Source of the DNA: a virus
Virus record (IMG/VR): IMGVR_UViG_3300045988_049951
Reading direction: 5' to 3' (one strand)
DNA length: 64,000 bases
The position numbers and the translations under genes were made by a program. Shown one piece after another: positions 3,892-31,322 of the stretch. The notes under the pieces were generated by a model that saw nothing but the letters and a program-made list of their open reading frames with translations, ran no database searches and had not been told where the DNA came from. Within the stretch, counting starts at the first letter, position 1. Every line of letters starts with the position of its first letter.

Positions 3892-3902
3892 GTGTAACTG
3901 GA

Positions 3903-4665: not shown

Positions 4666-4671
4666 ATTATG

Positions 4672-4696
4672 TGGACCTAACGGGAGTCGAACCCGT
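4672..4696 (-). other. orphan tRNA 3'-fragment (T-arm ACGGGTTCGACTCCCGT plus acceptor 3' strand TAGGTCCA)
   Basis: No matching 5' acceptor (GGACCTA) within about 400 nt; the 3' acceptor strand is identical to that of the tRNA(CAT) at 12600..12674. Confidence 0.4.
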
Positions 4697-5242
4697 GTCC
4701 AAACAACCCTCGTTACAAGGATAACGTGCGTCTCATTTTTATTACATCAGCTAGGGAGTTCTAGCATTTAGGTAGTTTTATAAGTCTTACAAGAGTCCAT
4801 ACTAAGTATTTCTCTAGATGCTTATCTACAAGCTACCAAACTATAGGGCTGACCGAAGTCAACGTTCCACCACTCCATTTACGTTGGAGAACGGGATGAT
4901 ACTTTAGAGATTCGTCACATCTCATGGAACACATCTTCCATCTGTTTTATGACGTAGGAGATTCAGTCTTACTAACTCTTAGAGTGTTCTGATTAAGAGT
5001 ATATTACTAGGATTAGAGCCTAGCTCTCCATTATGTCAATATACTCAACCTCTTCTGTTTCTAGGTCTCTCCCGTAACCCGACTTAGTTAATAGTGTCTA
5101 CCAACAAGCCAGCAGCTTAGGCTGCCATTCTTACTTCGCTATAAGTAGCATTTATTGTTTTTTCTTCGTTTAAAGAGATTGCGCTCTACACGTCCTTATA
5201 ATTCGTAATCGCCTGTCAAATCCAAGTAGGCCCATGTTCCCG

Positions 5243-5818
5243 TCAATTAGACGGGAGTTTACATTGTTTAATTATTTCCTTAGTAATTACGTTATTAGCT
5301 TCTCTAGATAACTTATTCAGTTTCTCTAGGTCAAACTCGCTAGATTGAAACTTGAATTGAATCCAAGTTGGCTCGCTTGGTCTATAATCTAACCAAGATT
5401 CACAGTCATCGGTTCCAAGAACTTCTCGTACCATAGCTAAAATACGTTCACCAGCAGCTTTAGTTTTTACGAATCCAGATAAATCATATCCAACCCCTCT
5501 AGAATGCCAATATTCCCCTTCTTCTGGTCTAACATCCTTAGGTTCCCAATGCCAAGGAGGAATACCTTTTCTAGGATGGTCTATTTTTATAGCTTCTTCC
5601 TTTACCCATTCAGAGTTTGGGTCAGATGGATTTTCTGGATAAGCTCCATATAAGCACTTAGCAGTAGGGTTATTGCTCCTGACTTCAAAATGTATACCAC
5701 AATGTTTACAAGTACCAGAAGTTAAACCTCCTCCAGATACGCAACTACCTTTAATGGCATCACAACCACAGTTGGGACAACCCCATTTTAGGTATTCGTC
5801 ATAAAGTATTGATAACAT
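5243..5818 (-). CDS. zinc-ribbon protein (191 aa), function unknown
   Basis: N-terminal GCPNCGCDAIKGSC...TCKHCG cysteine cluster; ORF track. Confidence 0.45.
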   Translation of the reverse strand: MLSILYDEYLKWGCPNCGCDAIKGSCVSGGGLTSGTCKHCGIHFEVRSNNPTAKCLYGAYPENPSDPNSEWVKEEAIKIDHPRKGIPPWHWEPKDVRPEEGEYWHSRGVGYDLSGFVKTKAAGERILAMVREVLGTDDCESWLDYRPSEPTWIQFKFQSSEFDLEKLNKLSREANNVITKEIIKQCKLPSN

Positions 5819-6114
5819 TATTTATTGAGTTTAAATTCCACTTCTTTTAGAACAACATACATTTTACCATCCTCTTTCTGTTCAACACAATTATTAGCTT
5901 GTAAAAAATTAATTATGAAGTCCATAGGAATGTGGTAATTGTCAGTTACAAGCATACTGCCATCAATATGATAGCGTTCTTTTCTCTCTAATCTAGTGGG
6001 ATTACCATTTATAGTAATCTCACCAGAACATTCATTATCCTTATCTGGTTTAATTCCCTTTATGTAAATAGAATAACCAGCTTCAGCTAAATAAACTTGT
6101 TGTATTACACTCAT
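5818..6114 (-). CDS. hypothetical protein (98 aa)
   Basis: ORF track; coupled with neighbours by overlapping stop/start. Confidence 0.4.
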   Translation of the reverse strand: MSVIQQVYLAEAGYSIYIKGIKPDKDNECSGEITINGNPTRLERKERYHIDGSMLVTDNYHIPMDFIINFLQANNCVEQKEDGKMYVVLKEVEFKLNK

Positions 6115-6536
6115 AGTTTTGGAACATCAGAACGATTATCATGATAACCTTCGTCCCCAACAAGTTGAGCCAGACAACCATGCATATAAGGAACAAGCTC
6201 AGGTTTCTCCTTATAACACCTGTATAGCATCCAACTCATACTCATGGAATTTCCACTATGTCCTTTGTCGTAGTACGGAAGTTTGTCTTTGATAGCCTCA
6301 ATCAGCTCAAATAAGCTAGGATATTTCTCATAGAAGGCTTTACATTCCTCCAGACTCATTTCTTTGAAAAACTCAGAAAATGATAGAGCTTGCTTTATAC
6401 AAGCCATTTCATAATCGAATAGGTCATTTTCTTCAAATGTACCATTACCAGCTTCAATGAATAAACGATTGAAACGTTCAATTCTCTCCTGAAATTCTTT
6501 CGGAAGAGATTCCTTCGTAAGATTCTTGAAATCCAT
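6111..6536 (-). CDS. hypothetical protein (141 aa)
   Basis: ORF track. Confidence 0.4.
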   Translation of the reverse strand: MDFKNLTKESLPKEFQERIERFNRLFIEAGNGTFEENDLFDYEMACIKQALSFSEFFKEMSLEECKAFYEKYPSLFELIEAIKDKLPYYDKGHSGNSMSMSWMLYRCYKEKPELVPYMHGCLAQLVGDEGYHDNRSDVPKL

Positions 6537-6567
6537 AATCTAATTTTAATTGTTAAAAATAACTTAG

Positions 6568-6640
6568 TAGCGGGAGTCGGATTCGAACCGACGACCTTCA
6601 GGTTATGAGCCTGACTAGCTACCTCTGCTATCATCCCGCG
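6568..6640 (-). tRNA. tRNA with anticodon CAT (Met, fMet or Ile2), copy 1
   Basis: Anticodon stem-loop TCAGG-CTCATAA-CCTGA, D-stem TAGC/GCTA, T-arm GTCGGTTCGAATCCGAC. Confidence 0.65.
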
Positions 6641-6643
6641 ATA

Positions 6644-6829
6644 TTACAAATGCTTTTTAATTAGTTTACAATGATTATACTCTCCTCCCCATCTAATAGG
6701 AAACTCTTTTTCCTTAGCCTCTTTATACTTCTCTGCCTGTTTCTTGTCTAAAAAGATTTGGCAATCAGTTTCATAATTTTGAGGAGCATTAGCTGGGTGA
6801 TAATTTACTACAACTACATATACTTTCAT
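6644..6829 (-). CDS. hypothetical small protein (61 aa)
   Basis: ORF track. Confidence 0.35.
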   Translation of the reverse strand: MKVYVVVVNYHPANAPQNYETDCQIFLDKKQAEKYKEAKEKEFPIRWGGEYNHCKLIKKHL

Positions 6830-6848
6830 AATTTTTTAAATAAAGTTT

Positions 6849-6921
6849 GTGGACACGCAGGGACTCGAACCCTATCTTCCGGTGTGCAAAACCAGCGCTC
6901 TAGCCATTTGAGCTAACGGCC
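6849..6921 (-). tRNA. tRNA-Ala-like (anticodon TGC) with a poorly paired acceptor stem; possibly a pseudo-tRNA
   Basis: Good D-arm, anticodon arm (CTGGT-TTTGCAC-ACCGG) and T-arm (TAGGGTTCGAGTCCCTG), but 5' GGGCCGT does not pair with 3' CGTGTCC. Confidence 0.35.
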
Positions 6922-7269
6922 CATTTTTGGGATTTTCTTTTTAATTGGTGACATACCCATAAATTTCCACTGTTAAGATTCCACAACTTAACAACACCAG
7001 ATAAGTTTTTTTGTTTGAATCATGTTCTAGTAGCATAAGTCCGCAACCATGCTACTCTCTCAGTTCATCGACTATCGTGTCAGAAAAGGTCTCTATGATT
7101 CCGCAGGGACTGGCTTTAACTTAAACCCCGAATGGATTTTTACCTTGCCAGGTCAGGATATTATTACGTTTCTAGCACTCTGAATTGATTTAGCCTGTTT
7201 AATCTTATAATCACGAACTACTTCTTTCATATAAGAGTTAAATTCCTTCATGTCTTTCCATGAAATCTC

Positions 7270-7428
7270 ATTAGCTAGTTTTGGAGTTTGAAACATTTTG
7301 TACTTTTCTAATAGGTCTTTCATTTCTCTCTTTAGTTTTCAAAGCATTTTCACACGCTTGTTTCTTCATTACATATGGACAATCACAATTTCCACTGTAG
7401 TACCAACAACAATAATCACACTGATGCA
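7270..7428 (-). CDS. hypothetical Cys-rich small protein (52 aa; MHQCDYCCWYYSGNCDCPY...)
   Basis: Manual translation of a minus-strand ORF below the 60-aa track cutoff; low confidence. Confidence 0.25.
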
Positions 7429-7450
7429 TAATCTAATATAAGGTCAATAG

Positions 7451-7522
7451 CTGGGGCACATGGACTCGAACCATGATTCTTTGATTAACAGTCAAAAGTT
7501 CTGACCTTTGAACTATACCCCA
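7451..7522 (-). tRNA. tRNA-Asn (anticodon GTT)
   Basis: Anticodon stem-loop TTTGA-CTGTTAA-TCAAA; T-arm CATGGTTCGAGTCCATG; acceptor TGGGGTA/TGCCCCA. Confidence 0.65.
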
Positions 7523-7767
7523 ATAGTTAATTTTCTCCACGGGTGTAGATAAGTACCCCTTTGGTACTTACCTTTTAGTAGTATCTTTACTCTAGACCTC
7601 TATAAGGAGGCGGAATAGTTCCAGAAACTAACCATGTATAGCTCTTAGAACTCTGTTCAAAATACCACTTAGCAGCTTTCTTCACAACATTAATTACTTT
7701 CTTCATAACATCAAAGTTTAAAATTGTTAATAATTAATCTAATTCAGAGCCACAAAAGGAGTTTAGT

Positions 7768-7844
7768 TGCGGAGGTAGGATTCGAACCGTTTATGACGAT
7801 TTCTAGGTTATGAGCCTAGCGAGATGACCACTTCTCTACTCCAC
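7768..7844 (-). tRNA. tRNA-like with anticodon CAT (copy 2) and a non-canonical T-arm region
   Basis: Perfect anticodon arm CTAGG-CTCATAA-CCTAG and D-arm GAGA/TCTC, but the sequences flanking TTCGAAT do not form a 5-bp T-stem. Confidence 0.35.
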
Positions 7845-8121
7845 GATATTGGTAACTACTTTACATCCGCTACCCAGGGATGCCTCTATCACCAGTGAGG
7901 CACGGACTATTCTAACCGTATAGCACGACTGGTTGGTAACGTCTCCAGACACGGCATTTAGACTGAAAATGTCGAAACAGTGATTTAAAGATTAAATAGG
8001 CTCTGGAAGATATTTTCAAATATAGCCATACTATGATTTGGTTTTATTCTTACAGCATCCTATAATATGACTCTATGCAGATTTATTGTCAGTAATTCCG
8101 TTATTAATTTGTTGCATCTTT

Positions 8122-8229
8122 CTAAAAGTCATAACAATGTTCCTTCCAGCGCTCTTCTATAGAAGTAGTAGTTTTTCCTACGTATCGCTTGCTATTAATT
8201 AAATTTGTAATGCAATAAATATATGCCAT
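8122..8229 (-). pseudogene. GIY-YIG homing-endonuclease N-terminal remnant (about 35 codons)
   Basis: MAYIYCITNLINSKRYVGKTTTSIEERWKEH is the GIY-YIG motif, followed by stop codons with no downstream continuation in any frame. Confidence 0.4.
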
Positions 8230-8249
8230 ATTTTTAAATTTAAAATTAG

Positions 8250-8333
8250 AATCCGTGGAGGGATTCGAACCCTCATTAAAGATTTCTCTTTTCAGTTTTG
8301 CAGACTGATGGCTAAACCATTCACCCACACGGA
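8250..8333 (-). tRNA. 84-nt type-II-like tRNA (long variable arm, 3-bp D-stem) with anticodon GCA (Cys) and discriminator T
   Basis: Acceptor ATCCGTG/CACGGAT, anticodon stem-loop TCAGT-CTGCAAA-ACTGA, variable arm AAAGAGAAATCTTTAAT, T-arm GAGGGTTCGAATCCCTC. Confidence 0.5.
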
Positions 8334-8335
8334 TA

Positions 8336-17187: not shown

Positions 17188-17667
17188 TCAGCCAAATATA
17201 CAAATCATTGAAGATATAAAGAATACAGCTCCTCCTACTACACTTGTCCAACCTCCAGCATCTTCGTCATTCTTAGATAGCTTTCCTCTACCAGTTAGTA
17301 GCATAAACAAGGATATTCCTAATAATATGATACCTATTACAACACCTGCTATCTCTTTGTAAAGTAATTTCCATACTACGATAGTTATTGCTGTTTGTCC
17401 CAAATTAGAGTCTGCTATTCTGATGGCGGAATCTTCAACTGCTTTAAGAGTTTCATTAACAGCCACGCCTATTTCCTTACCAAGGTTAGCATACTCAGAA
17501 ACTTCCTTGATTTCACCCTTTATAGCTTTCTCTGTTGTTATCTTCTCAATTTGAGTTCTAGTATCACTAGGCAACTTATCATAGTCTTCTTGTGATATAG
17601 TTATCTGAGAAAAAGCTGCTACGCTCATCCAGAGCATAGCAAGCATAATTACAAGGAACTTTTTCAT
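17188..17667 (-). CDS. secreted / membrane protein (signal peptide plus two C-terminal TM helices)
   Basis: MKKFLVIMLAMLWMSVAAFSQ signal peptide; C-terminal hydrophobic segments; start overlaps the stop of the upstream gene (TAATG). Confidence 0.45.
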   Translation of the reverse strand: MKKFLVIMLAMLWMSVAAFSQITISQEDYDKLPSDTRTQIEKITTEKAIKGEIKEVSEYANLGKEIGVAVNETLKAVEDSAIRIADSNLGQTAITIVVWKLLYKEIAGVVIGIILLGISLFMLLTGRGKLSKNDEDAGGWTSVVGGAVFFISSMICIFG

Positions 17668-18227
17668 TAGTCAAGCCATTCAAATTCTTCACCCTTGAAA
17701 TGTCTTGCAAAACAAGCATCGAACACTAGCTTTCCAAACTGGGTTGATACGTATTTGGCAATCTCTTCAGATTTGCACGCAAGCATCCCGACAAAGGAAT
17801 TGGCATAGCCGACGTCAAAGTAAGAATTGAAAGAGCCGAGACCCGCATAGCCGCCATAATGCGCGCTGCCGCCCACCAACGCGAATTTCTCGCCCTGATA
17901 ACGGAAGTGACCAATGACTTCTGCATCCTTCGGAACTGATTTCATTCTAAAGAAGCGAACCCAGGGATACCATATAGTACCAGTTAACAGATTGAACTTG
18001 TGACCTTCATTTAGCGCATCCAAGACTGTCTGCAACTTAGCTAGAGAATTTACAGATCTATTGTAGTAAATAGTATCTCTAGTAACACACCCTAGATAGT
18101 TTACAGCATCCTCATAGGTTCTTATCCGTCCCATAATGTTTTCTGGAACGATTTCAACATTGCCAGTTTCGGCATTATAGATGGGTTTATAACCATCTGG
18201 ACATTCAATTTCAATTGTCTTTTTCAT
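17667..18227 (-). CDS. second (remote) DGR target protein: small C-type-lectin/FGE-like protein carrying variable repeat VR2
   Basis: Residues about 116-147 (LVGGSAHYGGYAGLGSFNSYFDVGYANSFVG) are encoded by a GC-rich 90-nt segment homologous to the DGR template repeat; every difference from the template lies at a template adenine. Confidence 0.6.
   Translation of the reverse strand: MKKTIEIECPDGYKPIYNAETGNVEIVPENIMGRIRTYEDAVNYLGCVTRDTIYYNRSVNSLAKLQTVLDALNEGHKFNLLTGTIWYPWVRFFRMKSVPKDAEVIGHFRYQGEKFALVGGSAHYGGYAGLGSFNSYFDVGYANSFVGMLACKSEEIAKYVSTQFGKLVFDACFARHFKGEEFEWLD
17788..17878 (-). repeat. DGR variable repeat 2 (VR2), inside CDS 17667..18227
   Basis: About 90-nt alignment to the TR (43822..43919) with some 18 mismatches, all at TR adenines (A to G/T/C). 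Confidence 0.7.
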
Positions 18228-18256
18228 TCGTTATAATATTTAATAAAACATGATTA

Positions 18257-18331
18257 GGGTGTTATAGCGGACTCGAACCGCTGACCTCTACAGCCACAAT
18301 GTAGCGTTCTGCCAACTGAACTAATAACACC
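18257..18331 (-). tRNA. tRNA-His (anticodon GTG)
   Basis: Acceptor GGTGTTA/TAACACC, anticodon stem-loop CTACA-TTGTGGC-TGTAG, T-arm GCGGTTCGAGTCCGC. Confidence 0.7.
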
Positions 18332-18337
18332 ATCAAA

Positions 18338-18802
18338 TTATTCGAATAGCGGCAGCAACTTCTTTCCTAGTATCTTCACCGCTTTCTGTACATCAGCTAC
18401 AGTTCTAAAATAAACAACACCTGGATATTTTACGTTTTGATGCATGACGACGTACACTCCTTTTATATCAGTTTCCGTCTTTCCAGATAGAGAAGAACCT
18501 TTTCCAAGAAAATAGCCAGTATTACCTTCTGTTTTGATCCATCCTTTATTTAGATAGTTAGCAACTATTTGTAAACTAGCTAGAGAACTGAGTTGTTCTG
18601 TCATGCTTGGAGGACATACTAATGTATTCCAAAAACCATAATCTTCTTCAGACTCTACTATCTCTTTAAAGGAAGGAATTAGCATTTCCTCACTAAATGC
18701 AGTAAGAGCTAATTTCTTCAAGTCTTCATTACCGCTTTCATACCATTCGCGTGCCTGCTCTAAAGTTACCTCAAGATAGGCTTTTGTCTTAATTCTATTC
18801 AT
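18338..18802 (-). CDS. hypothetical protein (154 aa)
   Basis: ORF track. Confidence 0.4.
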   Translation of the reverse strand: MNRIKTKAYLEVTLEQAREWYESGNEDLKKLALTAFSEEMLIPSFKEIVESEEDYGFWNTLVCPPSMTEQLSSLASLQIVANYLNKGWIKTEGNTGYFLGKGSSLSGKTETDIKGVYVVMHQNVKYPGVVYFRTVADVQKAVKILGKKLLPLFE

Positions 18803-19050
18803 TTTTGTTTATTAGTTTTTAATGGACACCAATCCGGAATTAATACCCTTTCGTAAGGTCTTAACATTCCTTCAATTAGTTTATTCTCAGACTCCTTACA
18901 GAGCGCTTTCTCGTCGTCATCATTGAACCAGTCATTAGGATCTGGGTCAGGAACAATTAAGCAGTGCGGACATTCTCTACACTGCTTAATTTCTTTTTGA
19001 AATACTACACTAGTACCAGATTTCTGGTAAGTATCCTTCTCCGTACTCAT
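18799..19050 (-). CDS. hypothetical Cys-containing protein (83 aa)
   Basis: ORF track; CRECPHC...WCP cysteines. Confidence 0.4.
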   Translation of the reverse strand: MSTEKDTYQKSGTSVVFQKEIKQCRECPHCLIVPDPDPNDWFNDDDEKALCKESENKLIEGMLRPYERVLIPDWCPLKTNKQK

Positions 19051-19056
19051 AATTTG

Positions 19057-19272
19057 TCATTTTGTAATTTCTTTAAATTCGTTTATAACTGTTTTTATAA
19101 ATGGTTTAATATCAAATAATAGTATTACAATAACAAATATAGTATTTATTACTGGTAATGCCATTATTGCGAGTCTTCCAACTGTAACAGATCGTTCATT
19201 TACTGCCATATAAAGGCTAACTATGTACGTGCTTATTACGTATATAAATGCTGAATATACAAATATCATCAT
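19057..19272 (-). CDS. small membrane protein (two TM helices)
   Basis: ORF track; strongly hydrophobic sequence. Confidence 0.4.
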   Translation of the reverse strand: MMIFVYSAFIYVISTYIVSLYMAVNERSVTVGRLAIMALPVINTIFVIVILLFDIKPFIKTVINEFKEITK

Positions 19273-19290
19273 AATATATTGAAATTAGTG

Positions 19291-19374
19291 TGGGATTGGG
19301 AGGACTCGAACCTCCAGTCTCAAAAGAGAGCAGATTTACAGTCTGCGCGGCTACCAATTACCGGTTACAATCCC
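19291..19374 (-). tRNA. tRNA-Tyr (anticodon GTA), type II, copy 1
   Basis: Anticodon stem-loop GCAGA-CTGTAAA-TCTGC, long variable arm, acceptor GGGATTG/CAATCCC. Confidence 0.7.
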
Positions 19375-19587
19375 GAATCGACCTAGTAGAGAACCCTGGT
19401 TTCCTCATTTAAATATGACTAACCTATATGCAGTGGGTATACATATTTCTAAAATTCATATCCTAGGTCTCGCTAATAGAGTTTTATTCATAGACAGATT
19501 TATAATAATCTATCCAATAGTCTGCTTCCATATCTTCGAAGATTTCTTTAAGTTCTTCATCAGATAATCCTTCGTATTTGTCTTCCA

Positions 19588-19959
19588 TTATATCTTTCTC
19601 CTATTAAATAGTCTAAAATATTCGTCAGAATATACGCTGCATAAGTCCTTATACTTTTTTGGCATAGGATAATCAAAGTCATCAAATGCAGACTCTTTAA
19701 TAAATCCATCATGTAGAGCCATATTTGCTGTGGTAACAGCAATATTACAATTACGCTCCTTTCCCCAGTCAACAATGTTACTCATAACACTATTAAAGTA
19801 TTCTGTATCATTATCTACTTGGAGATAGATTTCCACTCTGCAAATTGCAGGATTTTTGAATCCTTGTCTACCTTGTCTAAGAGTTATTTTAGATACGAAA
19901 TTCAAGTCTAGCAAATCTGCTATTCTATCCTTAGCTACAATTCTAGAAATTCTTATCAT
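19588..19959 (-). CDS. hypothetical protein (123 aa)
   Basis: ORF track; the overlapping ORF 19560..19775 is judged spurious. Confidence 0.4.
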   Translation of the reverse strand: MIRISRIVAKDRIADLLDLNFVSKITLRQGRQGFKNPAICRVEIYLQVDNDTEYFNSVMSNIVDWGKERNCNIAVTTANMALHDGFIKESAFDDFDYPMPKKYKDLCSVYSDEYFRLFNRRKI

Positions 19960-19986
19960 CTTTTGGTAAGTTATTTTACATAATTG

Positions 19987-20070
19987 TGGGATAGGTAGGA
20001 TTCGAACCTACTAAGCCTAAAGGCAACGGATTTACAGTCCGTCCCAACTCTCCATCGTTGGCGCTATCCC
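19987..20070 (-). tRNA. tRNA-Tyr (anticodon GTA), type II, copy 2 (sequence distinct from copy 1)
   Basis: Anticodon stem-loop ACGGA-CTGTAAA-TCCGT, variable-arm stem GCCT/AGGC, T-arm GTAGGTTCGAATCCTAC. Confidence 0.7.
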
Positions 20071-20279
20071 ATAAAGCAATTAACAGATTTGTTCTAATTA
20101 ACATAGCTACTACAATTCTTCCTCTTGGCACCCCAAGTCCTCTAGTAGCTAATAGCCGCACTAGTGCGTGGTAACAATTTTAAGGGAACTCACCTCTGTT
20201 AATTGGAGTAATCAGGGATTCATCTACGTAGGCACCCAATAGACATTATCTATTCTACTAGTGAATGGTGATTACTTCG

Positions 20280-20352
20280 TCTGGATAGTGTGGCTCGAAC
20301 ACACGACCTCTGCATCCCAAATGCAGCGTTCTACCTACTGAACTATATCCAG
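20280..20352 (-). tRNA. tRNA-Pro (anticodon TGG)
   Basis: Acceptor CTGGATA/TATCCAG, anticodon stem-loop CTGCA-TTTGGGA-TGCAG, T-arm GTGTGTTCGAGCCACAC. Confidence 0.7.
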
Positions 20353-20420
20353 GTGTAAGTATGTGTTTCACAACAAATACTCACTGCGTAAGAAAAAGAA
20401 AAATTCAAGAAAATTGCCTG

Positions 20421-20494
20421 TGACTCCGCTGGGATTCGAACCCAGGACCCCCAAATTAAAAGTTTGGTGCTCTAACCAACTGAGCTACGGAGTC
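20421..20494 (-). tRNA. tRNA-Lys (anticodon TTT)
   Basis: Acceptor GACTCCG/CGGAGTC, anticodon stem-loop CCAAA-CTTTTAA-TTTGG, T-arm CTGGGTTCGAATCCCAG. Confidence 0.75.
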
Positions 20495-20509
20495 ATTTTA
20501 ATGATAAAG

Positions 20510-20583
20510 TATCCCGTGAAGGATTCGAACCTTCGACCCACAGCTTAGAAGGCTGTTGCTCTATCCAACTGAGCTAACGGGAC
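20510..20583 (-). tRNA. tRNA-Arg (anticodon TCT)
   Basis: Anticodon stem-loop ACAGC-CTTCTAA-GCTGT, T-arm GAAGGTTCGAATCCTTC. Confidence 0.7.
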
Positions 20584-20635
20584 ATCGTGTTCGCTATTAT
20601 ATACAGCGAACTACGTTCTTCTTAGTTAATAATTG

Positions 20636-21595
20636 TTAAATCTTCTCTTCGGAAATAAGCGCATTACCGCACGTTATTCTGTCAGCATCTTCTTCTTTAG
20701 AAGGAACAAATACGATAACATCCCAACCTTCTTCAAGTAAAGGCTGTTCGAATTGACGATAAACATTATAATCAGAGTAGCCAGTTACTTCAAAACCATT
20801 CTCAACTGCGGATGCAGTTTCATGAATAGGGGTTATTTTCACAATAAACTTCTCTTTATCGAAAAGTCTAGATAACTCCTTTGCATCCAGAATAGTCTGT
20901 GCAGTAACTGGGAAATTCAACGTATACTTTCTACCTTTCGGCATAGGTAAACGACTAGCCATTTCAGAAATAGTAGCTAATGAATGACTTTTGTTGTCAA
21001 ATAGCTCTCTTCTCTGTTCATCATCAGTAGAATTTATTGAGAATTGAAGACCTGCCTCACCTCCGTAGAAATCATTCTTGATTCCACACCAAGTTTGTAT
21101 GAAGTTCTCTAGTTTTCTATTAGCTCTAGGAAGCATAGTAGAAACTACTGGATGGACAGTCTTAGCTATCAATCCACAACTCTTTACTACTTCTTTTAGA
21201 ACAATCCCAAATGCTAGTACATTATCATTCCAAGTTGGCTCTCCCATTCTTGCGAAATGCACATTGAATCTGTCAGTATTCCTAACAGTCTCATTCTTGA
21301 TAATGTTTCTTATTTGCCATTCCATCTCTTCAATAGAAACGTTTCCATAGAATCCAAATTTCGGAACATCACAGAACTTGCATGTCATCGGACAACCTTT
21401 CTGGGTAGAAATGGTTGCAACCCACTTCTTACTAAGGTCAACTTCAGTATTAGCTACTCCGTTGATCTCCTTAGTTAATCCTAGGAAATTAGCTTTGATA
21501 TTGTTCTCCTTTCCATAGTCTCCTACGGTTAGAAATTCAAGTTTATGTTCTGTATCAACATAAATCTTTCCTGTGTGAGTAAGTATTGTCTTCAT
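20636..21595 (-). CDS. radical-SAM methyltransferase of the RlmN/Cfr family (319 aa)
   Basis: STQKGCPMTCKFCDV (compare RlmN SSQVGCALECKFCST), SAM-binding ARMGEP (RlmN MGMGEPL), C-terminal ITCGNAL (RlmN AACGQLA, second catalytic Cys). Confidence 0.6.
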   Translation of the reverse strand: MKTILTHTGKIYVDTEHKLEFLTVGDYGKENNIKANFLGLTKEINGVANTEVDLSKKWVATISTQKGCPMTCKFCDVPKFGFYGNVSIEEMEWQIRNIIKNETVRNTDRFNVHFARMGEPTWNDNVLAFGIVLKEVVKSCGLIAKTVHPVVSTMLPRANRKLENFIQTWCGIKNDFYGGEAGLQFSINSTDDEQRRELFDNKSHSLATISEMASRLPMPKGRKYTLNFPVTAQTILDAKELSRLFDKEKFIVKITPIHETASAVENGFEVTGYSDYNVYRQFEQPLLEEGWDVIVFVPSKEEDADRITCGNALISEEKI

Positions 21596-21875
21596 TGTTC
21601 TTCAATTGCCTTCCAAATGATAATTAATATTATGAATACTACTATATAGGTCATGGTACAATCCTCCAATCCAATCTATTCATCACTATTCTGAATTTGT
21701 TAGCTTCTGACCAGCTACGGAAAGACCTAACGATCTTCCCGTAACTGTCCAACAGATAATATTTCATACTTAACTAGCTCTCCATTAATATGAATTGTAC
21801 AAAGGATTATATTGCCTACAATAATCATAGTTTCCACCATAATTATCTCACCGTTTATTTCGGTGATTCTTCTCA

Positions 21876-22127
21876 TTATTGCCATAAACTAAATACTTTT
21901 TTTGTTAGTGGATAGTTTCCTCTCCACTTTGTTGCATACTTAAATACACGAGAATCGCCTGTACGACGCCAAGTAGATCGAAATAGCGGGAATAAAATCG
22001 CCATAACGACAAGTCCAAATACTAGAACAATGAAAGTTAAACCTTTCAGTATATGTTCTAATAACCAAACGGGTAAAGTAATGCCCCATCTAACAATTGC
22101 TAATAAATCTTCCATATTAGTTCTCAA
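21876..22127 (-). CDS. small membrane protein (83 aa)
   Basis: ORF track; hydrophobic. Confidence 0.4.
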   Translation of the reverse strand: MRTNMEDLLAIVRWGITLPVWLLEHILKGLTFIVLVFGLVVMAILFPLFRSTWRRTGDSRVFKYATKWRGNYPLTKKVFSLWQ

Positions 22128-22350
22128 CTATCAGAGTGTTATGGATTCTCAATTCCTCTTCCGAAATCGGAATTAATTCTCCAAATACTCTTATGTATTT
22201 TTGTTCTTTGATTACTAATGATGTGGTAATTTCAGTGATTACCTCGATGTTAGCATTGTGCCATCTCTTTAAATACTGAGAATGTATTCTTCTAGACAAT
22301 TCGTAGTTGTCTGAAGATGCTATTCTCGCAGCTTTGAATCTTTTTCTCAT
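22117..22350 (-). CDS. hypothetical protein (77 aa)
   Basis: ORF track. Confidence 0.35.
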   Translation of the reverse strand: MRKRFKAARIASSDNYELSRRIHSQYLKRWHNANIEVITEITTSLVIKEQKYIRVFGELIPISEEELRIHNTLIVEN

Positions 22351-22547
22351 GGTTTTCTTTTTAATTCGTTAAATCTTTTTCTTGCTAATTTTCCATTCAC
22401 AAATGTTTCTGTAACTGTTCTGATGCCTTCTATGTGAATGGTATACTCGAAGGCGTGGGTTCCAGTGAGAGTTATCACTCTTCCCCATGAATCTGTAAAT
22501 CTTGCGCGAACAGTTGAATCGCAGTGTAATCTGTTGAATTTTCTCAT
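22347..22547 (-). CDS. hypothetical protein (66 aa)
   Basis: ORF track; overlapping stop/start with the neighbouring gene. Confidence 0.35.
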   Translation of the reverse strand: MRKFNRLHCDSTVRARFTDSWGRVITLTGTHAFEYTIHIEGIRTVTETFVNGKLARKRFNELKRKP

Positions 22548-22601
22548 TTTCTTTTTCTTTTAATCCTGACTACCTATTTCTAGGTAGTTTCGTCTTAATT
22601 T

Positions 22602-23219
22602 TCAAAGACTCATCAGAGGATCTTCATATAAACCCAATTTATACAATTGCATTATTTCTTCATCTTTACTTTTAGGGTCTAATATAGAAAGACCTTTTCT
22701 TATTTTTTCTAATCTTTCTAAATTGTTTTTCCTCGATAAATCGTTCATGCATGTAACTGCACTGAATCCGTAGTCTGTTTCAGTCATTATAAATAGTCCT
22801 GTATCTGTGACAACTGTAGAATCAAATATTTTTCCTAAGCAAAAATCTTTGCAGATATTCCTTAGTATATTATCTAGTCCTACAATTTTAAACCTCTCGT
22901 TATACCTATCTAAAAAATGACGTGTAAACTCCAGTACTGTAGTATCAGTAGAATAAGCATATATTCTTTTGCCACATTTAGTAAATACCGTATAATTTAA
23001 ACTATTTCTACTTAGACATTTCCATACTAAATAATATCTGTTATTTCCAACTTTCATCTGAGTTATTTCTCCAAAGTGTGGAAAAGTCATTTGATTTTTC
23101 ATTTTCAACAGTATTCGCCTTTTCTTTACGGCCATTCTTTCTGCAATTTTATCTATTGAGTCTATATCGCGGTTAAATTCCCTGACAATATCTTTACCTG
23201 TCATCGTATCTACAATCAT
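22602..23219 (-). CDS. hypothetical protein (205 aa)
   Basis: ORF track. Confidence 0.45.
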   Translation of the reverse strand: MIVDTMTGKDIVREFNRDIDSIDKIAERMAVKKRRILLKMKNQMTFPHFGEITQMKVGNNRYYLVWKCLSRNSLNYTVFTKCGKRIYAYSTDTTVLEFTRHFLDRYNERFKIVGLDNILRNICKDFCLGKIFDSTVVTDTGLFIMTETDYGFSAVTCMNDLSRKNNLERLEKIRKGLSILDPKSKDEEIMQLYKLGLYEDPLMSL

Positions 23220-23293
23220 AAATTACTATCTATTAAATTATTAAAAGTGCTGTTTTACTTCTAAGCCAGCAAAGGGCGAAGGACTTCCAATTC

Positions 23294-23620
23294 TCAGTTT
23301 AATTCGTATCCAAATTTTCTAAAAGCTTCTACTACTAGAGTCAATGTATGCTTTCCTACATTTCTAACTCTTAGTATATCTCTCTTTGAATACTGTTTAA
23401 CGAAAGTACTTAGAGTTATGGTTACGTCATTAGTAACAGACCTTAAAGCATTATTTGCCCTAACATCTAACTCTTCAAATAGAACGTAGATAGGAACATC
23501 TATTTGCTCCTTCTTAATTTTCTCTGTCTCGTAGATTACTCCTAGAGAATCTAACACTTTCTTATAGAGCTTAGATTCTTCTGCATTGATAGACTGTTCT
23601 TTAATCTTGATAATTTCCAT
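23294..23620 (-). CDS. helix-hairpin-helix protein resembling the RNA polymerase alpha-subunit C-terminal domain
   Basis: ELDVRANNALRSVTNDVTITLSTFV...DILRVRNVGKHTLTLVVEAFRKFGYEL parallels the alpha-CTD HhH pair (LSVRSANCLK...DLLRTPNFGKKSLTEI); first gene of the leftward operon next to the intergenic region. Confidence 0.4.
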   Translation of the reverse strand: MEIIKIKEQSINAEESKLYKKVLDSLGVIYETEKIKKEQIDVPIYVLFEELDVRANNALRSVTNDVTITLSTFVKQYSKRDILRVRNVGKHTLTLVVEAFRKFGYELN

Positions 23621-24004
23621 GATAAATATTTTTATTAATTATTACTAGAACTATTAGTTTTAGCTTGAATAGCTTACTTATCTCCTAAACCACGTAAAGG
23701 TTGTTCTTATCTTAGGAGTAGGAGACCTAAGTCTCCAATGCATACAATTGTTTCTCAACAACCTACGCCGTCATATATAATGAAAAGAGATGGATTATCC
23801 TGTGCCTACAATCATTTAAGATTGTCTTCGATTGTTGGTGCAATCTCACAATACTTTGCCTTATCTCTCGATAAGACACCTCTCCAGTATCAAGGTCATA
23901 CTGTTTGATATAAGAGATGCTCTGCATTAGTCTCTGGGCGTACCCATTATAATCCTAGAAAACGTAACAAAAGCTACAAGTAGTTGTAGTCATTGAATAC
24001 CAAG

Positions 24005-24074
24005 TTCCCTACTCTGGACTTGAACCAGAATCTTCTCCTTTAGAGGGAGATATACTGACTTGTACTAGTAGGGA
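24005..24074 (-). tRNA. suppressor tRNA with anticodon CTA (reads UAG); amino-acid identity unknown; 70 nt, short D-loop
   Basis: Acceptor TCCCTAC/GTAGGGA, U8, D-stem GTAC/GTAT, perfect anticodon stem TCTCC/GGAGA with loop CTCTAAA, T-arm TCTGGTTCAAGTCCAGA. Confidence 0.65.
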
Positions 24075-24903
24075 AATACTCCACCTATGCTATCTAGAAT
24101 AAGGTGGAGAGTTATTTAGATAGTTTCCTACGCTATCTACGTTACTAACGTTCACTAAGAATATAGGTAGCTAATCCATATTCTTGCGACTGAGTTCGAG
24201 GTAGGAAATATACCCTTATGAGGTATCCTCTTATCAGCTAGCCTTATTAATCTAGCGGCTTATACTAGGCAACTTCTAATACAATTGCATAACATATAAA
24301 AATATGACATACATGGTCTACTGGTATGTCAGCAGTACTTTCATATATTGCTATAAGTGACCAATCTTATAGCTCAATCCTCCTTACTCATGAGATAAGT
24401 TTGCGAACTCTCATTTTCATTAATAGCAGTTATTTTCGGATATTGGGCTATCTGCGTAACCCCGCTTTTTGTTGCCTTTTATAGGCTAATGTTAGAGTAA
24501 ATAATCATTGTAGTATGAGTTATAAAACTCGTCCTACTGGCGATTTTTTGAAAACTGGAAAAAGTAGGAAAATCTGCCTTTGAGTTTGTGGAACATTCTT
24601 CTCCTTACTCTCCATATTTTCACGTGAAACATACACGATTTTACTAGAAATGATAGTCTTTCCTATCAGCCAGACATAAAAACTAAAACTACTACAAAAG
24701 TTAACTCGGTTTTGATTTTTTTTTGTTTTGTTGTTGATTTCTCCGTTGACCAATGTTCCAATGATGGAGTTCATATGGGCATTTTATTTATACTCGTAAT
24801 ACCTTAGAGTTGCACGTTTGACTTATTTTAAATCTCGTTGTGCGCTGAGATCGACTCTAAGATTCGGTCACACTCTCACTTATTTATACACGAGAGAGTC
24901 GTG

Positions 24904-26453: not shown

Positions 26454-26525
26454 TGCCCTATGGTGTAATGGTCAGCACAGATGACTCTAAATCATTTAGT
26501 CTGGGTTCGAATCCTAGTAGGGCAA
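26454..26525 (+). tRNA. suppressor tRNA-Gln-like with anticodon CTA (reads UAG)
   Basis: TGCCCTA TG GTGT AATGGTCAGCAC A GATGA-CTCTAAA-TCATT TAGTC CTGGGTTCGAATCCTAG TAGGGCA A; the body closely resembles the genome's tRNA-Gln(TTG) (same TGGTGTAATGGT D-arm). Confidence 0.8.
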
Positions 26526-26766
26526 CGCCAAAATTAATAGTTATGATAAATTTAAATGAGAATTATGCTGTAACTCCAACAGGAGCTAAGACCCTTATTA
26601 TTGAAGAGGGAGATGATTGGAATAAAGTTTGCGATAAGGTAGTTGGATGTAGATTTGATTACATATTTGTACCTCAAGAATTTGAGAATCAAGCCTGCTA
26701 CTTTCTTCCACAAATAAGTATTCAAGGAAAGCAGATAGGTAAGATATGTACTTATAAAGTAGTGAA

Positions 26767-27730: not shown

Positions 27731-28011
27731 TAATATAGTACCAATCAGTTCTCTCCATGACTCCCTTTTCTCTAAGCTATTTATTATCTAAATGATAATC
27801 TCCGTTTCTGAAATTCAATTCCTTTTTAGAATAATCCCAATAAAAATATCCTCTCCATCCAGGAAGTAAGAGAGTACGACCTGTTGCCGCGTGTAAAGTT
27901 GCTTTGTTATAGTCCATGTTACTTTTTAAATATAAATAGTAAATATAGATATATTCTTAATACAATCTCTTTAATGCACTTAATAATGTTTTTCATCGTT
28001 TCTTAGTTTTA

Positions 28012-28335
28012 ATAAATCCATAAGTTCCCTTCTTTAATCTAGTAGTAGGAATCCATCCATTATCTAGAATAGACCTATGTCCACTCGGTTTATGTATCTT
28101 AGCCCCATCTTCGTGTTTCCATTTAGAAGCATTTCTAGCAAAATTAGCTCGCTTCTTCTAAAGAGGGGTAGCGTTAGGATTGTTTAGTACATGCTTAGCG
28201 TGTTCTTGTACAGATTCTCCTGCTGCCTTGGCAGATGCTGTAAATTTGCCTCTGTTCTTCTCTTTAATGTGAATGCCCGACCCATTTTTGAAAATTGGAC
28301 ACCCAAATGTTGTAATTTTCTTACTGTTAGACATT
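28012..28335 (-). CDS. basic small protein (108 aa) on the minus strand inside the late module, with one in-frame TAG
   Basis: Manual translation MSNSKKITTFGCPIF...NATPL(TAG)KKRANFARNASKWKHEDG...KKR; shows that the recoding is not strand-specific. Confidence 0.35.
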
Positions 28336-28448
28336 TTTAATATAATGTATTATTTATTGATTTGTATCTTACAAAGAATATTAATATACTTGAAAAGTAT
28401 CAAATAAATATAGATAAATGTGATAAATGATTAAATGAATTATGACTA

Positions 28449-29363
28449 ATGGACAAAAGTAAAATTACAAAACAAAATGGGAACATAGCTTTTGAGGAAG
28501 AAGCTCATATTTATTATGATGTTACAAAGCCAGAGCAGAAGTTTATATCTGTAACGACTTTAATTCATTCTTTCACCCAACCATTTGATAAGGAGTTCTG
28601 GTCAGCATATAAAGCACTAGAGAAACTCTTACCTAAAGAAGATTGGGCTATAGAAAAAAAGTCTTTGTTGAACACTAAGAAATTTGATAAAGTTCTACTT
28701 GAACTTCATAACATTACAGAAGACGAGTTTAATAAAGAGCAACAAGCTATCTTAGATGCTTGGGATTTAGAGAATAGAAACTCATGCGAGAGGGGAACTA
28801 AAATCCATGCAGATTTGGAAAACTCTTTCTATAAAAAGAAACAGAACATAGACCTTAGTAAATATCAAATAGGTGGCAAGTTCGAGTGTATAAAAGACCA
28901 CAATGAATTAGACTTAGAGAATGGTGTATATCCTGAGTATTTAATATCTAGAGTATCGGATGATGGAAAGCTAAGAATAGCAGGACAGATTGACTTATTA
29001 GTTAAAAGGGGAAATAAGATAATTATAGGAGACTGGAAGACCAATAAGAAAATAGAAACTAAGAGTTTCTTCAATTCTAAAACCAAAACTTCTGTTAAGA
29101 TGAAATATCCTCTAAATAATTTAGATGATGTTAATTACTGGCACTATACTTTACAATTAAGTACTTATGCTTGGATGATTCAAAAGAAAAATCCAGAGTT
29201 TGAAATAGAGGATTTGGTTTTGGTACATTTCGATCATAATGACAATATGACAGTATATCACTTGCCATACCTAAAAGATGAGGTTATAAAAATGCTAGCC
29301 TTCTACAAGAAGGAATCTATATTGGCAGAAAATAAAAGAAAACGTCAACGTATTGAATATTAA
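28449..29363 (+). CDS. PD-(D/E)XK-family nuclease (YqaJ / Cas4 / lambda-exo-like), 304 aa, no TAG
   Basis: AHIYYDV...ISVTTLI, then GQIDLLVKRGNKIIIGDWKTNKK and YTLQLSTYAWM, fit the D...D/E-x-K plus QxxxY arrangement of phage exonucleases. Confidence 0.45.
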   Translation: MDKSKITKQNGNIAFEEEAHIYYDVTKPEQKFISVTTLIHSFTQPFDKEFWSAYKALEKLLPKEDWAIEKKSLLNTKKFDKVLLELHNITEDEFNKEQQAILDAWDLENRNSCERGTKIHADLENSFYKKKQNIDLSKYQIGGKFECIKDHNELDLENGVYPEYLISRVSDDGKLRIAGQIDLLVKRGNKIIIGDWKTNKKIETKSFFNSKTKTSVKMKYPLNNLDDVNYWHYTLQLSTYAWMIQKKNPEFEIEDLVLVHFDHNDNMTVYHLPYLKDEVIKMLAFYKKESILAENKRKRQRIEY

Positions 29364-29365
29364 TT

Positions 29366-29581
29366 ATGACACTAGAGGAAATAGAAGAAAGATTTGAGAT
29401 ATGTAGACGCTGCCCAATATGTGACCAAGATAATGGATTATGTAATGGGCATTTGTATCTAAATCCAAAGAATAATGATATAAGTATAAGCCCTAAAGAA
29501 GGGTATATAAAGGGATGTGGATGTTTACTAGAGAAGAAGATTCCAAACGAAAAGAAACATTGCCCAGCAGGGAAATGGTAA
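29366..29581 (+). CDS. small Cys-rich protein (71 aa), paralog of the next gene
   Basis: CRRCPICD...GCGCLL...HCPAGKW; ORF track. Confidence 0.4.
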   Translation: MTLEEIEERFEICRRCPICDQDNGLCNGHLYLNPKNNDISISPKEGYIKGCGCLLEKKIPNEKKHCPAGKW

Positions 29582-29898
29582 TCTATGGAACTCCTATATT
29601 ATATAAACCAGATAAGCATTATATACTTACTGTCCAAAATATAAACGGGAAGGAGGAAGAAGATATGATATGGAAATGGATTAAAGCAATATTTATTAAA
29701 CCTTTAACAATATTGAAAAGTATATATTTCAATATATTCGGAATAAATCAAGATTTGGCAACCAAAAGATTAAAAATTTGTGACACTTGTTCCCATAAAT
29801 TACAAACATCTGTTGGGGAAGTGTGCGATGAATGTGGTTGTATACTAGAGAATAAAACAAGAATTGAAGATGAACATTGTGATTTATGTAAATGGTAA
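29575..29898 (+). CDS. small Cys-rich protein (about 107 aa; start trimmed to MVIYGTP), paralog of the previous gene
   Basis: ICDTCSHK...CDECGCIL...HCDLCKW; ATGGTAA start/stop overlap with the previous gene. Confidence 0.4.
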   Translation: MVIYGTPILYKPDKHYILTVQNINGKEEEDMIWKWIKAIFIKPLTILKSIYFNIFGINQDLATKRLKICDTCSHKLQTSVGEVCDECGCILENKTRIEDEHCDLCKW

Positions 29899-29906
29899 AA
29901 TGAATT

Positions 29907-30509
29907 ATGGAAACTTTAAGAACAGAATTAAACAGTAACGAAAAACTAGCACTATCATTAACCGGAATGGAAGGTACGGGAGAACATTTTATTTTAAATG
30001 GAGAGGCTGCAGACCAAACATTATTAAGAGAAAAACAAGAGAAGTTTAATACCGCAGTAGATGAGTTAGAAGATAAATTCTCTAAACATAATCAGGCACT
30101 AGAGGATTACGCTAAATCATTATCTAACGATATGAATGGAGTTGAAATTATGCCGATGTATGGGTATGCATTAATTAAACCCTTTGAACAAAACCCATTC
30201 CAAAAAATAAAAACTACTAAAAGCGGTCTTATTACTGATTTAGGTGGATTTACTCCTACTTATAAATCTAATGAGACTGGAGAAATTGAAGAAGAGCAAC
30301 AATTTATTAAGGTAGGAACTGTGATAGAAGTAGGACATAAGTGTGAGTTCTTGAAGCCTGGAGATATTGTATTTTATACAATAGCTAGTGAATGTATGGT
30401 TCCATTCTATAAACTAGGATTTGTAGTAGTTAATGAGAATAGAATCATGGCTGTAGTTAATGAGAAACTAACTGAAAGAAGAGACGAATTGAAGCATGGA
30501 AACAATTGA
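29907..30509 (+). CDS. hypothetical protein whose C-terminal region resembles GroES/Hsp10 (possible co-chaperonin, as T4 gp31 is)
   Basis: ...FIKVGTVIEVGHKCEFLKPGDIVFY...VVNENRIMAVV resembles GroES VKVGDRVLF...; weak. Confidence 0.3.
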   Translation: METLRTELNSNEKLALSLTGMEGTGEHFILNGEAADQTLLREKQEKFNTAVDELEDKFSKHNQALEDYAKSLSNDMNGVEIMPMYGYALIKPFEQNPFQKIKTTKSGLITDLGGFTPTYKSNETGEIEEEQQFIKVGTVIEVGHKCEFLKPGDIVFYTIASECMVPFYKLGFVVVNENRIMAVVNEKLTERRDELKHGNN

Positions 30510-30720
30510 TGAAAAAGTTTATTTTAAGCCTGGGGATTGTGTTACTTTACGGTAGTGTAAAGTAATGCACTCTCCAGTTATGCTTGTTCTAAGAAGAGAA
30601 GCAGCTTTATTTAAAGATAACCAAGGATTACGAGGACTAAGATGTAGATGGTTTACTGATTCTGGATTAATGCAGGAAGCAGTATTTAATACAAAGGATT
30701 TAATTAAAGTAGAAGAGTAA
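30496..30720 (+). CDS. DUF2158-like small protein (one in-frame TAG)
   Basis: KPGDCVTLR(TAG)CKVMHSPVMLVL...CRWF matches the GDxVxLKSGGPxMTV...W pattern. Confidence 0.35.
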
Positions 30721-31292
30721 TGGCTAATTAGGAAGAATTACAGAAAGCATTCATGGCATACTTGATACAAGATGCCCAAGCACAAGGGATACAACTACAA
30801 TCAGAGCAAGATTTATAGGCTTACGCTGAGTAGCTTGGAGAAGATGGAATCAAAGCCAAGTATCAAGAATTTATGTAGAAGATGCAAGGCGGAGTTATGG
30901 CTAGACTTGGAGCTAAACTAGAATACTATAAAAAATTAAAAGGAGTATGCCCAGAAGGAGAGGAACTTGTTTATTTTAAACAGGGAGGAAGAATCTGCAA
31001 AGCTTGCCAAAAAGCATAGAAAGGAACTAAGGTTACTAAGAAAGCTAATGAAGTTGACAAGTTCAAGGCTGGAAGAGCTTAGTATAAAAAGGATATGAAA
31101 TCTGCAAAGGATGAAGCATCCAGAGATTCTGTATCTATTAATAAATATAATGACTAGGAGGTCATGGCAAATAGAGGACACAAGGGAAACTTTAAAAATG
31201 GAAAATGGGTTCCAGATAGAACAAAGTATGCTAAGAAAGATGCTTGTGGTTCTAAAATGAAAGTAAGTAAATGCGGTTCTAAAATGAAATAA
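30720..31292 (+). CDS. hypothetical Gln-rich / basic protein (190 aa) with about 13 in-frame TAG codons
   Basis: Continuous frame from the ATG at 30720 (overlapping TAATG) to the TAA at 31290 if TAG is sense. Confidence 0.45.
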
Positions 31293-31322
31293 AAAGATTA
31301 AAGATGTTAATGTTAATGATTG

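Follow-up and report, generated by a model that had tools for sequence, protein, structure and literature searches.

In Bordetella phage BPP-1, the reference for such systems, the diversity-generating retroelement (DGR; Mtd, Avd, the template repeat (TR) and Brt) has a single tail-protein target, the variable repeat (VR) of which lies at the extreme C-terminus of a C-type lectin (CLec) fold. This system also includes the Avd protein, as well as a GC-rich initiation of mutagenic homing (IMH) element followed by a downstream hairpin. Phage DGRs with more than one target have been described as well. Quimbyvirus possesses a distal, non-structural second DGR target, ORF 84/80, for which a role in phage-host conflict was proposed (Benler et al. 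2021, Microbiome 9:78, PMC8008677), and both of its targets are stated to contain C-type lectin domains (PMC8008677). The Bacuni phages of Bacteroides uniformis carry a two-target DGR with the second target far away in the genome (PMC8143477); the targets contain DUF1566/Fib_succ_major motifs, hold the VR in their last 35 amino acids and are fimbrial-tip-like (PMC8143477). Tentaclins, which are also second DGR targets, consist of an N-terminal C-lectin domain followed by immunoglobulin (Ig) domains (PMC10743442). In a report on Zeta crAss-like phages, genomes of 156-177 kb are listed, which carry a tRNA block and CTA suppressor tRNAs, and the DGRs show amber codons in the reverse transcriptase (RT) gene, a GxxxSQ motif and a tail-fibre target beside the RT that is modelled as a C-terminal CLec domain, mostly without Avd (PMC12386605). 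In the largest DGR survey (Roux et al. 2021), remote targets were undetectable by design. Here, we describe a remote DGR target, a small minus-strand gene in a stretch of 64,000 nucleotides (the window) from the IMG/VR virus record IMGVR_UViG_3300045988_049951, which belongs to a phage described as a crAss-like gut phage of roughly 185 kb.

The small gene is located 26 kb from the TR on the opposite strand, and a probability of approximately 0.97 is assigned to the reading that it is an active remote DGR target. The two targets and the elements that write them are as follows.

17667..18227, minus strand: target gene 2, which encodes 186 amino acids, contains no in-frame TAG and matches phrog_11581
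17788..17877, minus strand: VR2, the remote variable repeat, beginning at the final base of codon 117 and reaching into codon 147
41925..43745, plus strand: target gene 1, encoding a tail protein of 606 amino acids (phrog_5302), with read-through needed at 8 in-frame TAG codons
43628..43717, plus strand: VR1, the variable repeat beside the cassette, which forms the 3' end of the tail-protein gene
43827..43916, plus strand: the TR, non-coding, with 30 adenines in 90 nt, between the VR1 gene and the RT gene
44059..45333, plus strand: the DGR reverse transcriptase (phrog_1423 "Reverse transcriptase", E 1.4e-111), with the motifs IGNYLSQ and YADD and 9 in-frame TAG codons

The repeat within target gene 2 appears as a GC-rich island in which adenine accounts for 0.13 of the bases, compared with 0.27-0.43 over most of the gene beyond the island and its edges. 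A 24-nt probe from this island has 2 matches in the window and none in 100 shuffles, and a blastn search of the window reveals exactly three copies, at 17787..17878 (minus strand), 43627..43718 (plus strand) and 43828..43915 (plus strand). The third copy is adenine-rich and non-coding and is therefore the TR. VR2 aligns without gaps to both the TR and VR1, and the 186-residue product of target gene 2 includes LVGGSAHYGGYAGLGSFNSYFDVGYANSFVG; the coordinates and the peptide that an earlier, sequence-only reading of the window had given for this repeat are thus correct. That reading had also counted roughly 18 mismatches, all at TR adenines, and the pairwise alignment bears this out: the ungapped 88-nt core contains 17 mismatches between the TR and VR2, and all 17 are at TR adenines. 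Adenines occupy 28 of the 88 positions of the core, and the chance of such a pattern is (28/88)^17, or approximately 3.5e-9 by our own calculation. Mismatches at non-adenine TR positions are confined to positions outside 43826..43917. Between the TR and VR1, 18 of the 19 mismatches are at TR adenines. VR1 and VR2 have only one VR-specific difference in common: at the last position, where the TR has adenine, 62 of 62 VRs have G.

The RT is readable only with TAG as a sense codon, and its exact start and terminal TAG are uncertain; for target gene 1, public data contain gene calls with an identical 606-residue product. No Avd gene is present inside the cassette, in which the gaps between the tail gene and the TR (81 nt) and between the TR and the RT (142 nt) contain no open reading frame (ORF); no scan for Avd covered the entire window. 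VR2 therefore combines homology to the TR, differences confined to adenines, a DGR-type RT adjoining the TR and, as described below, hypervariability in the population together with a conserved TR.

Related loci were retrieved with a TR-derived pattern carrying N at the adenines, which yielded 71 loci from approximately 41 IMG/VR genomes. The usual layout in these genomes is a VR1-TR pair approximately 200 nt apart and one VR2 on the other strand. In the comparison of 34 IMG/VR genomes, 753 of 1020 adenine sites (73.8%) in VR2 depart from the TR, as do 11 of 2040 other sites (0.4-0.6% at C, G and T); the population-level variation opposite TR adenines, which the sequence-only reading proposed as a check, is indeed observed. 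VR1, compared in 28 genomes, differs at 73.1% of adenine sites and 1.4-2.1% of the others. Among 29 related genomes, 24 have an identical TR, and the VRs are nearly all distinct (33 of 34 for VR2 and 28 of 28 for VR1). Among 33 genomes, two VR2 sequences differ on average at 49.9% of adenine sites and at 1.1% of the remaining VR2 sites; the average for the coding sequence on either side is 8.5-13.8%, computed on shorter flanks and without the VR1 flank values, which are inflated by indels. The non-adenine sites of VR2 are approximately 10-fold more conserved than the coding sequence around them. VR2 is thus homogenised to the TR and yet randomised at adenines, which is the signature of continuing retrohoming and excludes a decayed copy.

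The alternative that VR2 is a decayed or passive copy, with diversity that is historical or derived from recombination with VR1, could draw on a VR that is not C-terminal, on the lack of an identified hairpin or IMH and on a protein model that matches no CLec or Ig fold. Decay, however, would add non-adenine changes, whereas the non-adenine sites are conserved beyond their flanks and the adenine sites are near saturation; moreover, almost every VR2 allele is distinct, the reading frame is intact in 120 of 120 homologues, and VR2 resembles the VR1 of the same genome no more than it resembles other VR1s. This alternative is extremely improbable. The identity of VR1 and VR2 at hypervariable sites is 0.321 within genomes and 0.322 between genomes (permutation p = 0.52), and the absence of a within-genome excess indicates that each target is written independently of the other and that no matching between them is maintained. 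This lack of co-variation led to the rejection of both gene conversion from one VR to the other and selection for matching VRs. TR-derived, adenine-mutagenised sequence repeatedly overwrites VR1 and VR2, which lie 26 kb apart on opposite strands, and this overwriting locks the non-adenine positions of VR2 to the TR and randomises 11 codons. The earlier proposal that the DGR diversifies two proteins, the second of which is on the opposite strand in the tRNA-rich, non-virion module, is therefore upheld.

The consequences for the protein were assessed in the best 120 of 830 homologous clusters (90% identity), which are 85-95% identical and almost all 180-186 amino acids long; one cluster holds 3514 distinct sequences. 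Column entropies of 2.0-3.6 bits occur only at the 11 hypervariable VR2 positions (residues 121, 123, 124, 127, 132, 134, 136, 137, 141, 143 and 145), with 6 residue types at residue 132 and 11-16 at the others. The TR codon behind residue 132 is TAT, and the other 10 positions derive from AAY codons. Outside VR2, the entropy is near zero apart from a few moderate positions near the C-terminus (residues 178 and 180; up to 1.9 bits). Among 121 proteins, 98.9% of the VR residues fall within the amino-acid set that adenine mutagenesis of the TR codon can reach. The adenines of AGC and GCA codons are nearly fixed to G in both VR1 and VR2, giving glycine or a synonymous codon, which indicates selection on a common local structure. 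The length of VR2 proteins varies between 180 and 192 amino acids, with gaps within the VR at residues 121-126 and 136-141, and a small number of the assembled "TRs" are chimeric between TR and VR or have an insertion of 1 nt. These length variants and odd TRs could be real indels or assembly artefacts at a hypervariable repeat.

The 186-residue protein matches phrog_11581, the function of which is not annotated (E 4.8e-16, residues 25-176). It has no match in Pfam, NCBIfam or PADLOC, no relative among PDB sequences and no signal peptide, transmembrane or hydrophobic segment. An exhaustive HMMER search reveals 239 family representatives at 50% identity, which are mostly stand-alone proteins of 170-220 amino acids; the motifs KLxIIxxALN, YYP, GG and GLGxF are followed by a C-terminal helix, EIAxHxSKYFGKLIF, and the 186-residue protein is similar to the family over its full length. 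Two modules can be distinguished, the first of which is shared with a neighbouring paralogue.

17994..18227, minus strand: N-terminal module, residues 1-78, with a beta-hairpin and helices, the conserved "KLQxxxxALN" helix being the last
17670..17993, minus strand: C-terminal, VR-bearing module, residues 79-186, with three strands, the VR loops and two conserved helices at residues 154-176
18338..18802, minus strand: paralogue ("sibling") of 154 amino acids with the N-terminal module of the family, without a VR or an adenine-depleted island

The N-terminal module is common to paralogues that lack a VR, as shown by the match of the family profile A1 to the ORF at 18338..18802 (hhalign probability 96%, E 3.8e-9, residues 4-78). 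The 39 residues that follow VR2, a number that the sequence-only reading gave correctly and regarded as unusual, are not peculiar to this gene; the helical C-terminal extension after the VR is a conserved feature of the family. Alignment with the tail-protein target is limited to residues 115-152 (35-38 columns), even in profile-profile comparison, and nothing outside the VR can be aligned.

An AlphaFold2 model of the protein, built on an alignment of 95 sequences, has a predicted local distance difference test (pLDDT) score of 93.6 and a predicted template modelling (pTM) score of 0.86, and comprises a beta-hairpin and helices, then a sheet of three strands that leads into the VR loops, and two post-VR helices. 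A Foldseek search of this model against the full PDB reveals no match to a solved structure (best E 0.63), and the BFVD search returns only uncharacterised gut-phage proteins. The CLec or FGE fold envisaged earlier is therefore not borne out by the model, and the accompanying proposal that a structure unrelated to CLec or Ig-like domains would mark a decayed copy fails, because diversification is ongoing in a protein that matches no solved fold. None of the 95 aligned family members matches a CLec-type Pfam family (FGE-sulfatase, DUF1566 or Fib_succ_major), and the only CLec-like property found is the homology of the VR segment to the VR of the tail target; structure and profiles do not point to this fold. 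A positive control for CLec was unusable, the AlphaFold2 model of the C-terminal domain of the VR1 tail protein having a pLDDT of 41.5. A CLec fold is thus unconfirmed, in the sense that modelling did not recover it rather than disproved it. Nor does the protein resemble a tentaclin: its VR lies in the C-terminal half, and no Ig domain is present in the model or in Pfam.

Homologues of the protein that are 30-33% identical were identified by tblastn in the Bacteroides phages LoVEphage and Versailles, in recombination, methyltransferase or radical-SAM neighbourhoods. In both phages, the homologue is a remote DGR target.

LoVEphage, OY731433: TR 70752..70865, VR1 71039..71152, RT 69656..70471; remote VR2 in the CDS 54812..55396 on the other strand, with 19 of 20 mismatches at adenines
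Versailles, ON453897: TR 53832..53943, VR1 53630..53741 in a tail gene, RT 54082..55269; VR2 10550..10661 in the CDS 10181..10762, 43 kb away, with 15 of 16 mismatches at adenines

A remote target that shares its TR with a tail-protein target is thus present in three phages (the window phage, LoVEphage and Versailles). The window RT is 41% identical to the Versailles RT, and the tail targets of these two phages are homologous (32% identity). A cultured phage, Versailles is carried as a prophage by B. caecimuris I48 and shows activity in OMM12 mice. Its small target (ON453897 10181..10762; L002 5863..6444) is mis-annotated as "tail protein", apparently only because of the resemblance of its VR to that of the tail target. 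In the LoVEphage record OY731433, the first 21 nt (L074 1..21) repeat the start of the VR (71132..71152); the linear record seems to be broken in or next to the VR1 gene, which splits that gene. LoVEphage also carries the 35-nt Quimbyvirus protospacer of the Benler supplement with 1 mismatch and is therefore placed in the Quimbyvirus lineage; the closest representative in the protein collection is 42% identical to the LoVEphage protein. Given this protospacer link and a matching neighbourhood of methyltransferases and a tRNA ligase, the family described here is very probably the family of the Quimbyvirus distal target.

Beyond these three phages, a clear adenine-depleted island occupies the corresponding position in the metagenomic family members P0131, P0169 and P0186, and a weaker one is present in P0224; no TR is found within 10 kb of any of the four, and no RT is found in the flanks of the 6 loci other than those of the window, LoVEphage and Versailles. 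In the 30 residues equivalent to the VR, K, E, Q and M account for 3.9%, compared with 22.8% elsewhere (95 representatives), and 44 of the 95 contain none of them, so roughly half or more of the family looks DGR-written. All nine family loci examined are non-structural, with methyltransferases, tRNA ligase, PNKP, RNA ligase, NUDIX, NAMPT and helicases among small genes of accessory, replication or counter-defence type.

The VR-less sibling is separated from target gene 2 by a tRNA-His gene and may be a functional partner of the DGR target. Its motifs are an N-terminal "TLExAxEWYxSGN..LKxLAL" and a C-terminal "NTGYFLG...VKYPGxVYF", and a homologous VR-less sibling of approximately 150 amino acids also adjoins the target in locus L076 (10583..11017). 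Two family paralogues lie within 3 kb of each other in L080 (2182..2793 and 4889..5488) and L082 (8562..9098 and 10001..10516). A second type of N-terminal module, also present in this family, is shared by hypothetical proteins of cultured crAss-like phages, namely crAss001 Gp100 (L083 1777..2517), DAC15 (95008..95262) and the PhiCrAssBcn series; the crAss001 Gp100 gene sits in a tRNA-rich region of small genes.

The two targets of the window phage are located on different sides of a switch in the genetic code, at the junction of which both tRNA-CTA genes are found.

24004..24074, minus strand: tRNA-CTA, amber suppressor, needed for translating the RT and target gene 1
26454..26526, plus strand: second amber suppressor, a tRNA whose anticodon is CTA

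In the left module (1..24000), the long minus-strand ORFs, including target gene 2 and its neighbours, contain no in-frame TAG, with the exceptions of 2982..3674, 8843..9688 and 23712..24179, which have 1, 5 and 6. The plus-strand packaging and virion genes (28000..60000) contain 2-37 TAGs each (15 in TerL and 32 in the portal gene), and TAG makes up 2-4% of the codons of structural genes. Downstream of the DGR, an ORF of 2169 amino acids with 37 in-frame TAGs occupies 48648..55157 on the plus strand. The RT and the VR1 tail gene thus need TAG read-through, and the VR2 gene is on the TAG-free side. Of the 26 tRNA genes in the window, the minus strand carries 24, between 2.9 and 20.6 kb. With the TerL proteins of crAss-like phages, the window TerL shares 26-29% identity; the relatives measure 178-192 kb, and at the DNA level, the only matches among GenBank phages are to tRNAs. 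These sequence features appear to fit the Zeta crAss-like group as it is described in PMC12386605.

Stop-codon-recoded phages are reportedly known, from work by Borges et al. in 2022, to express recoded genes late in infection. Since in-frame TAG codons occur in the RT and tail genes but are missing from the VR2 gene, writing would take place late, and retrohoming would begin once the suppressor tRNAs of the phage itself are functional. Progeny genomes would then each receive a fresh VR2 allele, to be expressed early in the next infection. The 186-residue protein would combine an N-terminal module of the kind found in non-variable paralogues with a C-terminal module that displays the variable loops, and might act inside the infected cell, providing at the population level a library whose members bind a polymorphic factor of the host or of a competitor. 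Such a protein may serve in phage-host conflict or counter-defence, as Benler et al. suggested for the distal target of Quimbyvirus. We consider that the protein is probably early, intracellular and not part of the virion; that it is specifically a counter-defence protein or a binder of host factors is a more tentative suggestion, on which the balance is somewhat unfavourable. A non-virion ligand-binding role was already proposed from the sequence, and the TAG-free gene, the absence of a signal peptide and the nine non-structural loci make it plausible.

Several points weigh against this interpretation. The function of the protein is inferred from its context, and Pfam, NCBIfam and PADLOC do not recognise it. 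The absence of TAG shows translation that is independent of suppression rather than early timing. No IMH-like GC block and no significantly stable hairpin were found 3' of VR2, and the folds downstream of the VRs are no better than those of shuffles (z = -0.5 and -1.1). The family members P0246 and P0254 have no adenine-depleted island and are not diversified, which indicates that the function of the scaffold is not dependent on a DGR. Lack of a signal peptide does not prevent a small protein from being part of the virion, the occurrence of the N-terminal module on differing C-termini resembles, by analogy, the anchor domains of modular receptor-binding proteins, and the TR held in common with a tail protein could point to a receptor-related role.

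In a different explanation, the protein is a virion-associated accessory adhesin, receptor-binding subunit or tail-tip partner of the VR1 tail protein, with a gene that merely happens to lie away from the structural block; the N-terminal module docks on the particle, and the DGR diversifies two surfaces for host recognition. The TR is shared with a tail protein in three unrelated phages, the VR segment is homologous to the tail VR up to the terminal "GF-x-C" strand, and the N-terminal module recurs in anchor-like fashion with different C-terminal parts in many crAss-like phages; furthermore, published two-target phage DGRs are read as adhesins (Bacuni, PMC8143477; tentaclins, PMC10743442). However, the family lies in a non-structural neighbourhood at each of the nine loci, and target gene 2 has no TAG, in contrast to the TAG-rich structural genes of the same phage. 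Co-variation between VR1 and VR2 within genomes is also absent, and no relationship to the tail target is detectable in the scaffold beyond the VR. An adhesin is therefore unlikely, although it is the most serious competitor of the intracellular role.

The intracellular reading can be extended to the family as a whole, which would then be an unrecognised DGR scaffold that is neither CLec nor Ig, is written, always remotely, in about half or more of its members and, in the three fully resolved cases, from the TR of a tail protein. It would act as an early intracellular "antibody library" through which unrelated Bacteroidales phages hedge their bets against host defences or takeover targets that are polymorphic, the code switch separating late writing from early use. 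Taken in its entirety, this extension is speculative and rather doubtful.

The genes around target gene 2 suggest a further possibility.

17188..17667, minus strand: downstream protein of 159 amino acids, the N-terminus of which is signal-peptide-like, and which has two hydrophobic segments in its C-terminal part
14162..16135, minus strand: flotillin of 657 amino acids (SPFH/Band_7, FloT-like, E 5.5e-39)
20636..21595, minus strand: radical-SAM protein (phrog_24834) with weak RlmN/Cfr-like RNA methyltransferase matches, among tRNA genes

The stop codon of target gene 2 overlaps the ATG of the 159-residue protein gene by 1 nt (TAATG), as would be expected from the translational coupling that had been proposed. 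This pairing is not conserved, the membrane neighbour being absent beside the family members of LoVEphage, Versailles, L076 and L077, and it is therefore weak evidence on function. The nearby flotillin, also noticed beforehand, is confirmed as FloT-like. It belongs to an operon (14162..16899, minus strand) in which a 172-residue membrane protein in the NfeD position and a 76-residue lipoprotein-like ORF precede flotillin, an unusual membrane-scaffold operon for a phage. Together with the coupled membrane protein and this flotillin/NfeD-like operon, the variable protein might have a role at the cell envelope, either in superinfection exclusion or in masking the receptor of the diversified tail protein. 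Apart from the stop/start overlap, the position of the flotillin and membrane protein genes 1-3.5 kb downstream on the same strand is consistent with this role. An export signal is lacking in the variable protein itself, tRNA genes intervene between target gene 2 and the flotillin genes, and the four loci without the membrane neighbour also argue against it; a role at the envelope is improbable. The radical-SAM protein is 52% identical over its full length to that of Versailles, which is itself encoded a few kb from the Versailles small target. It was rejected as part of the system, since it is common to Versailles and not to LoVEphage.

Phage DGRs are usually read as host-range devices on tail fibres, whereas here a small, non-structural family is co-targeted in three unrelated Bacteroidales phages. 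Scans for DGRs that are limited to a window around the RT miss this whole class of targets, and annotation by VR similarity mislabels small remote targets as tail proteins. Because Versailles is cultured and active in mice, the question raised by Benler et al., namely the role of a hypervariable non-structural phage protein, is directly testable in that phage.

A comparison with the known systems reveals both shared and distinct features. The window DGR resembles that of BPP-1 in the adenine-specific transfer from TR to VR, in AAY-type variable codons that are unable to become stops and in a tail-protein target; unlike in BPP-1, neither a C-terminal CLec VR in the VR2 protein nor a cassette Avd or an IMH/hairpin was found. 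With the Bacuni and tentaclin systems, the window protein shares the status of a second DGR target and none of their domain features. Like the Zeta crAss-like phages, as they are described in PMC12386605, the window phage has a tRNA block, CTA tRNAs, an amber-bearing RT with GxxxSQ, an adjacent tail target and no cassette Avd. Apart from extra TR-VR pairs in two phages, that paper presents only cassette-adjacent tail-fibre targets, and it mentions no remote small target. The closest counterpart is Quimbyvirus, in which one DGR likewise has two targets, a structural gene beside the RT and a distal gene on the opposite strand among non-structural genes of counter-defence type. Quimbyvirus is, however, a temperate phage of 71-75 kb, whereas the window phage is approximately 185 kb, crAss-like and TAG-recoded, with its target and RT on opposite sides of the genetic-code switch; additionally, the C-type lectin domains stated for Quimbyvirus were not recovered for the window family by fold and profile searches. 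A remote, non-structural DGR target, described once before in Quimbyvirus, is thus now found in a crAss-like, code-switching phage, and this work adds that the family, which has no recognisable fold or annotation, recurs in three phage lineages and appears to be predominantly DGR-written.

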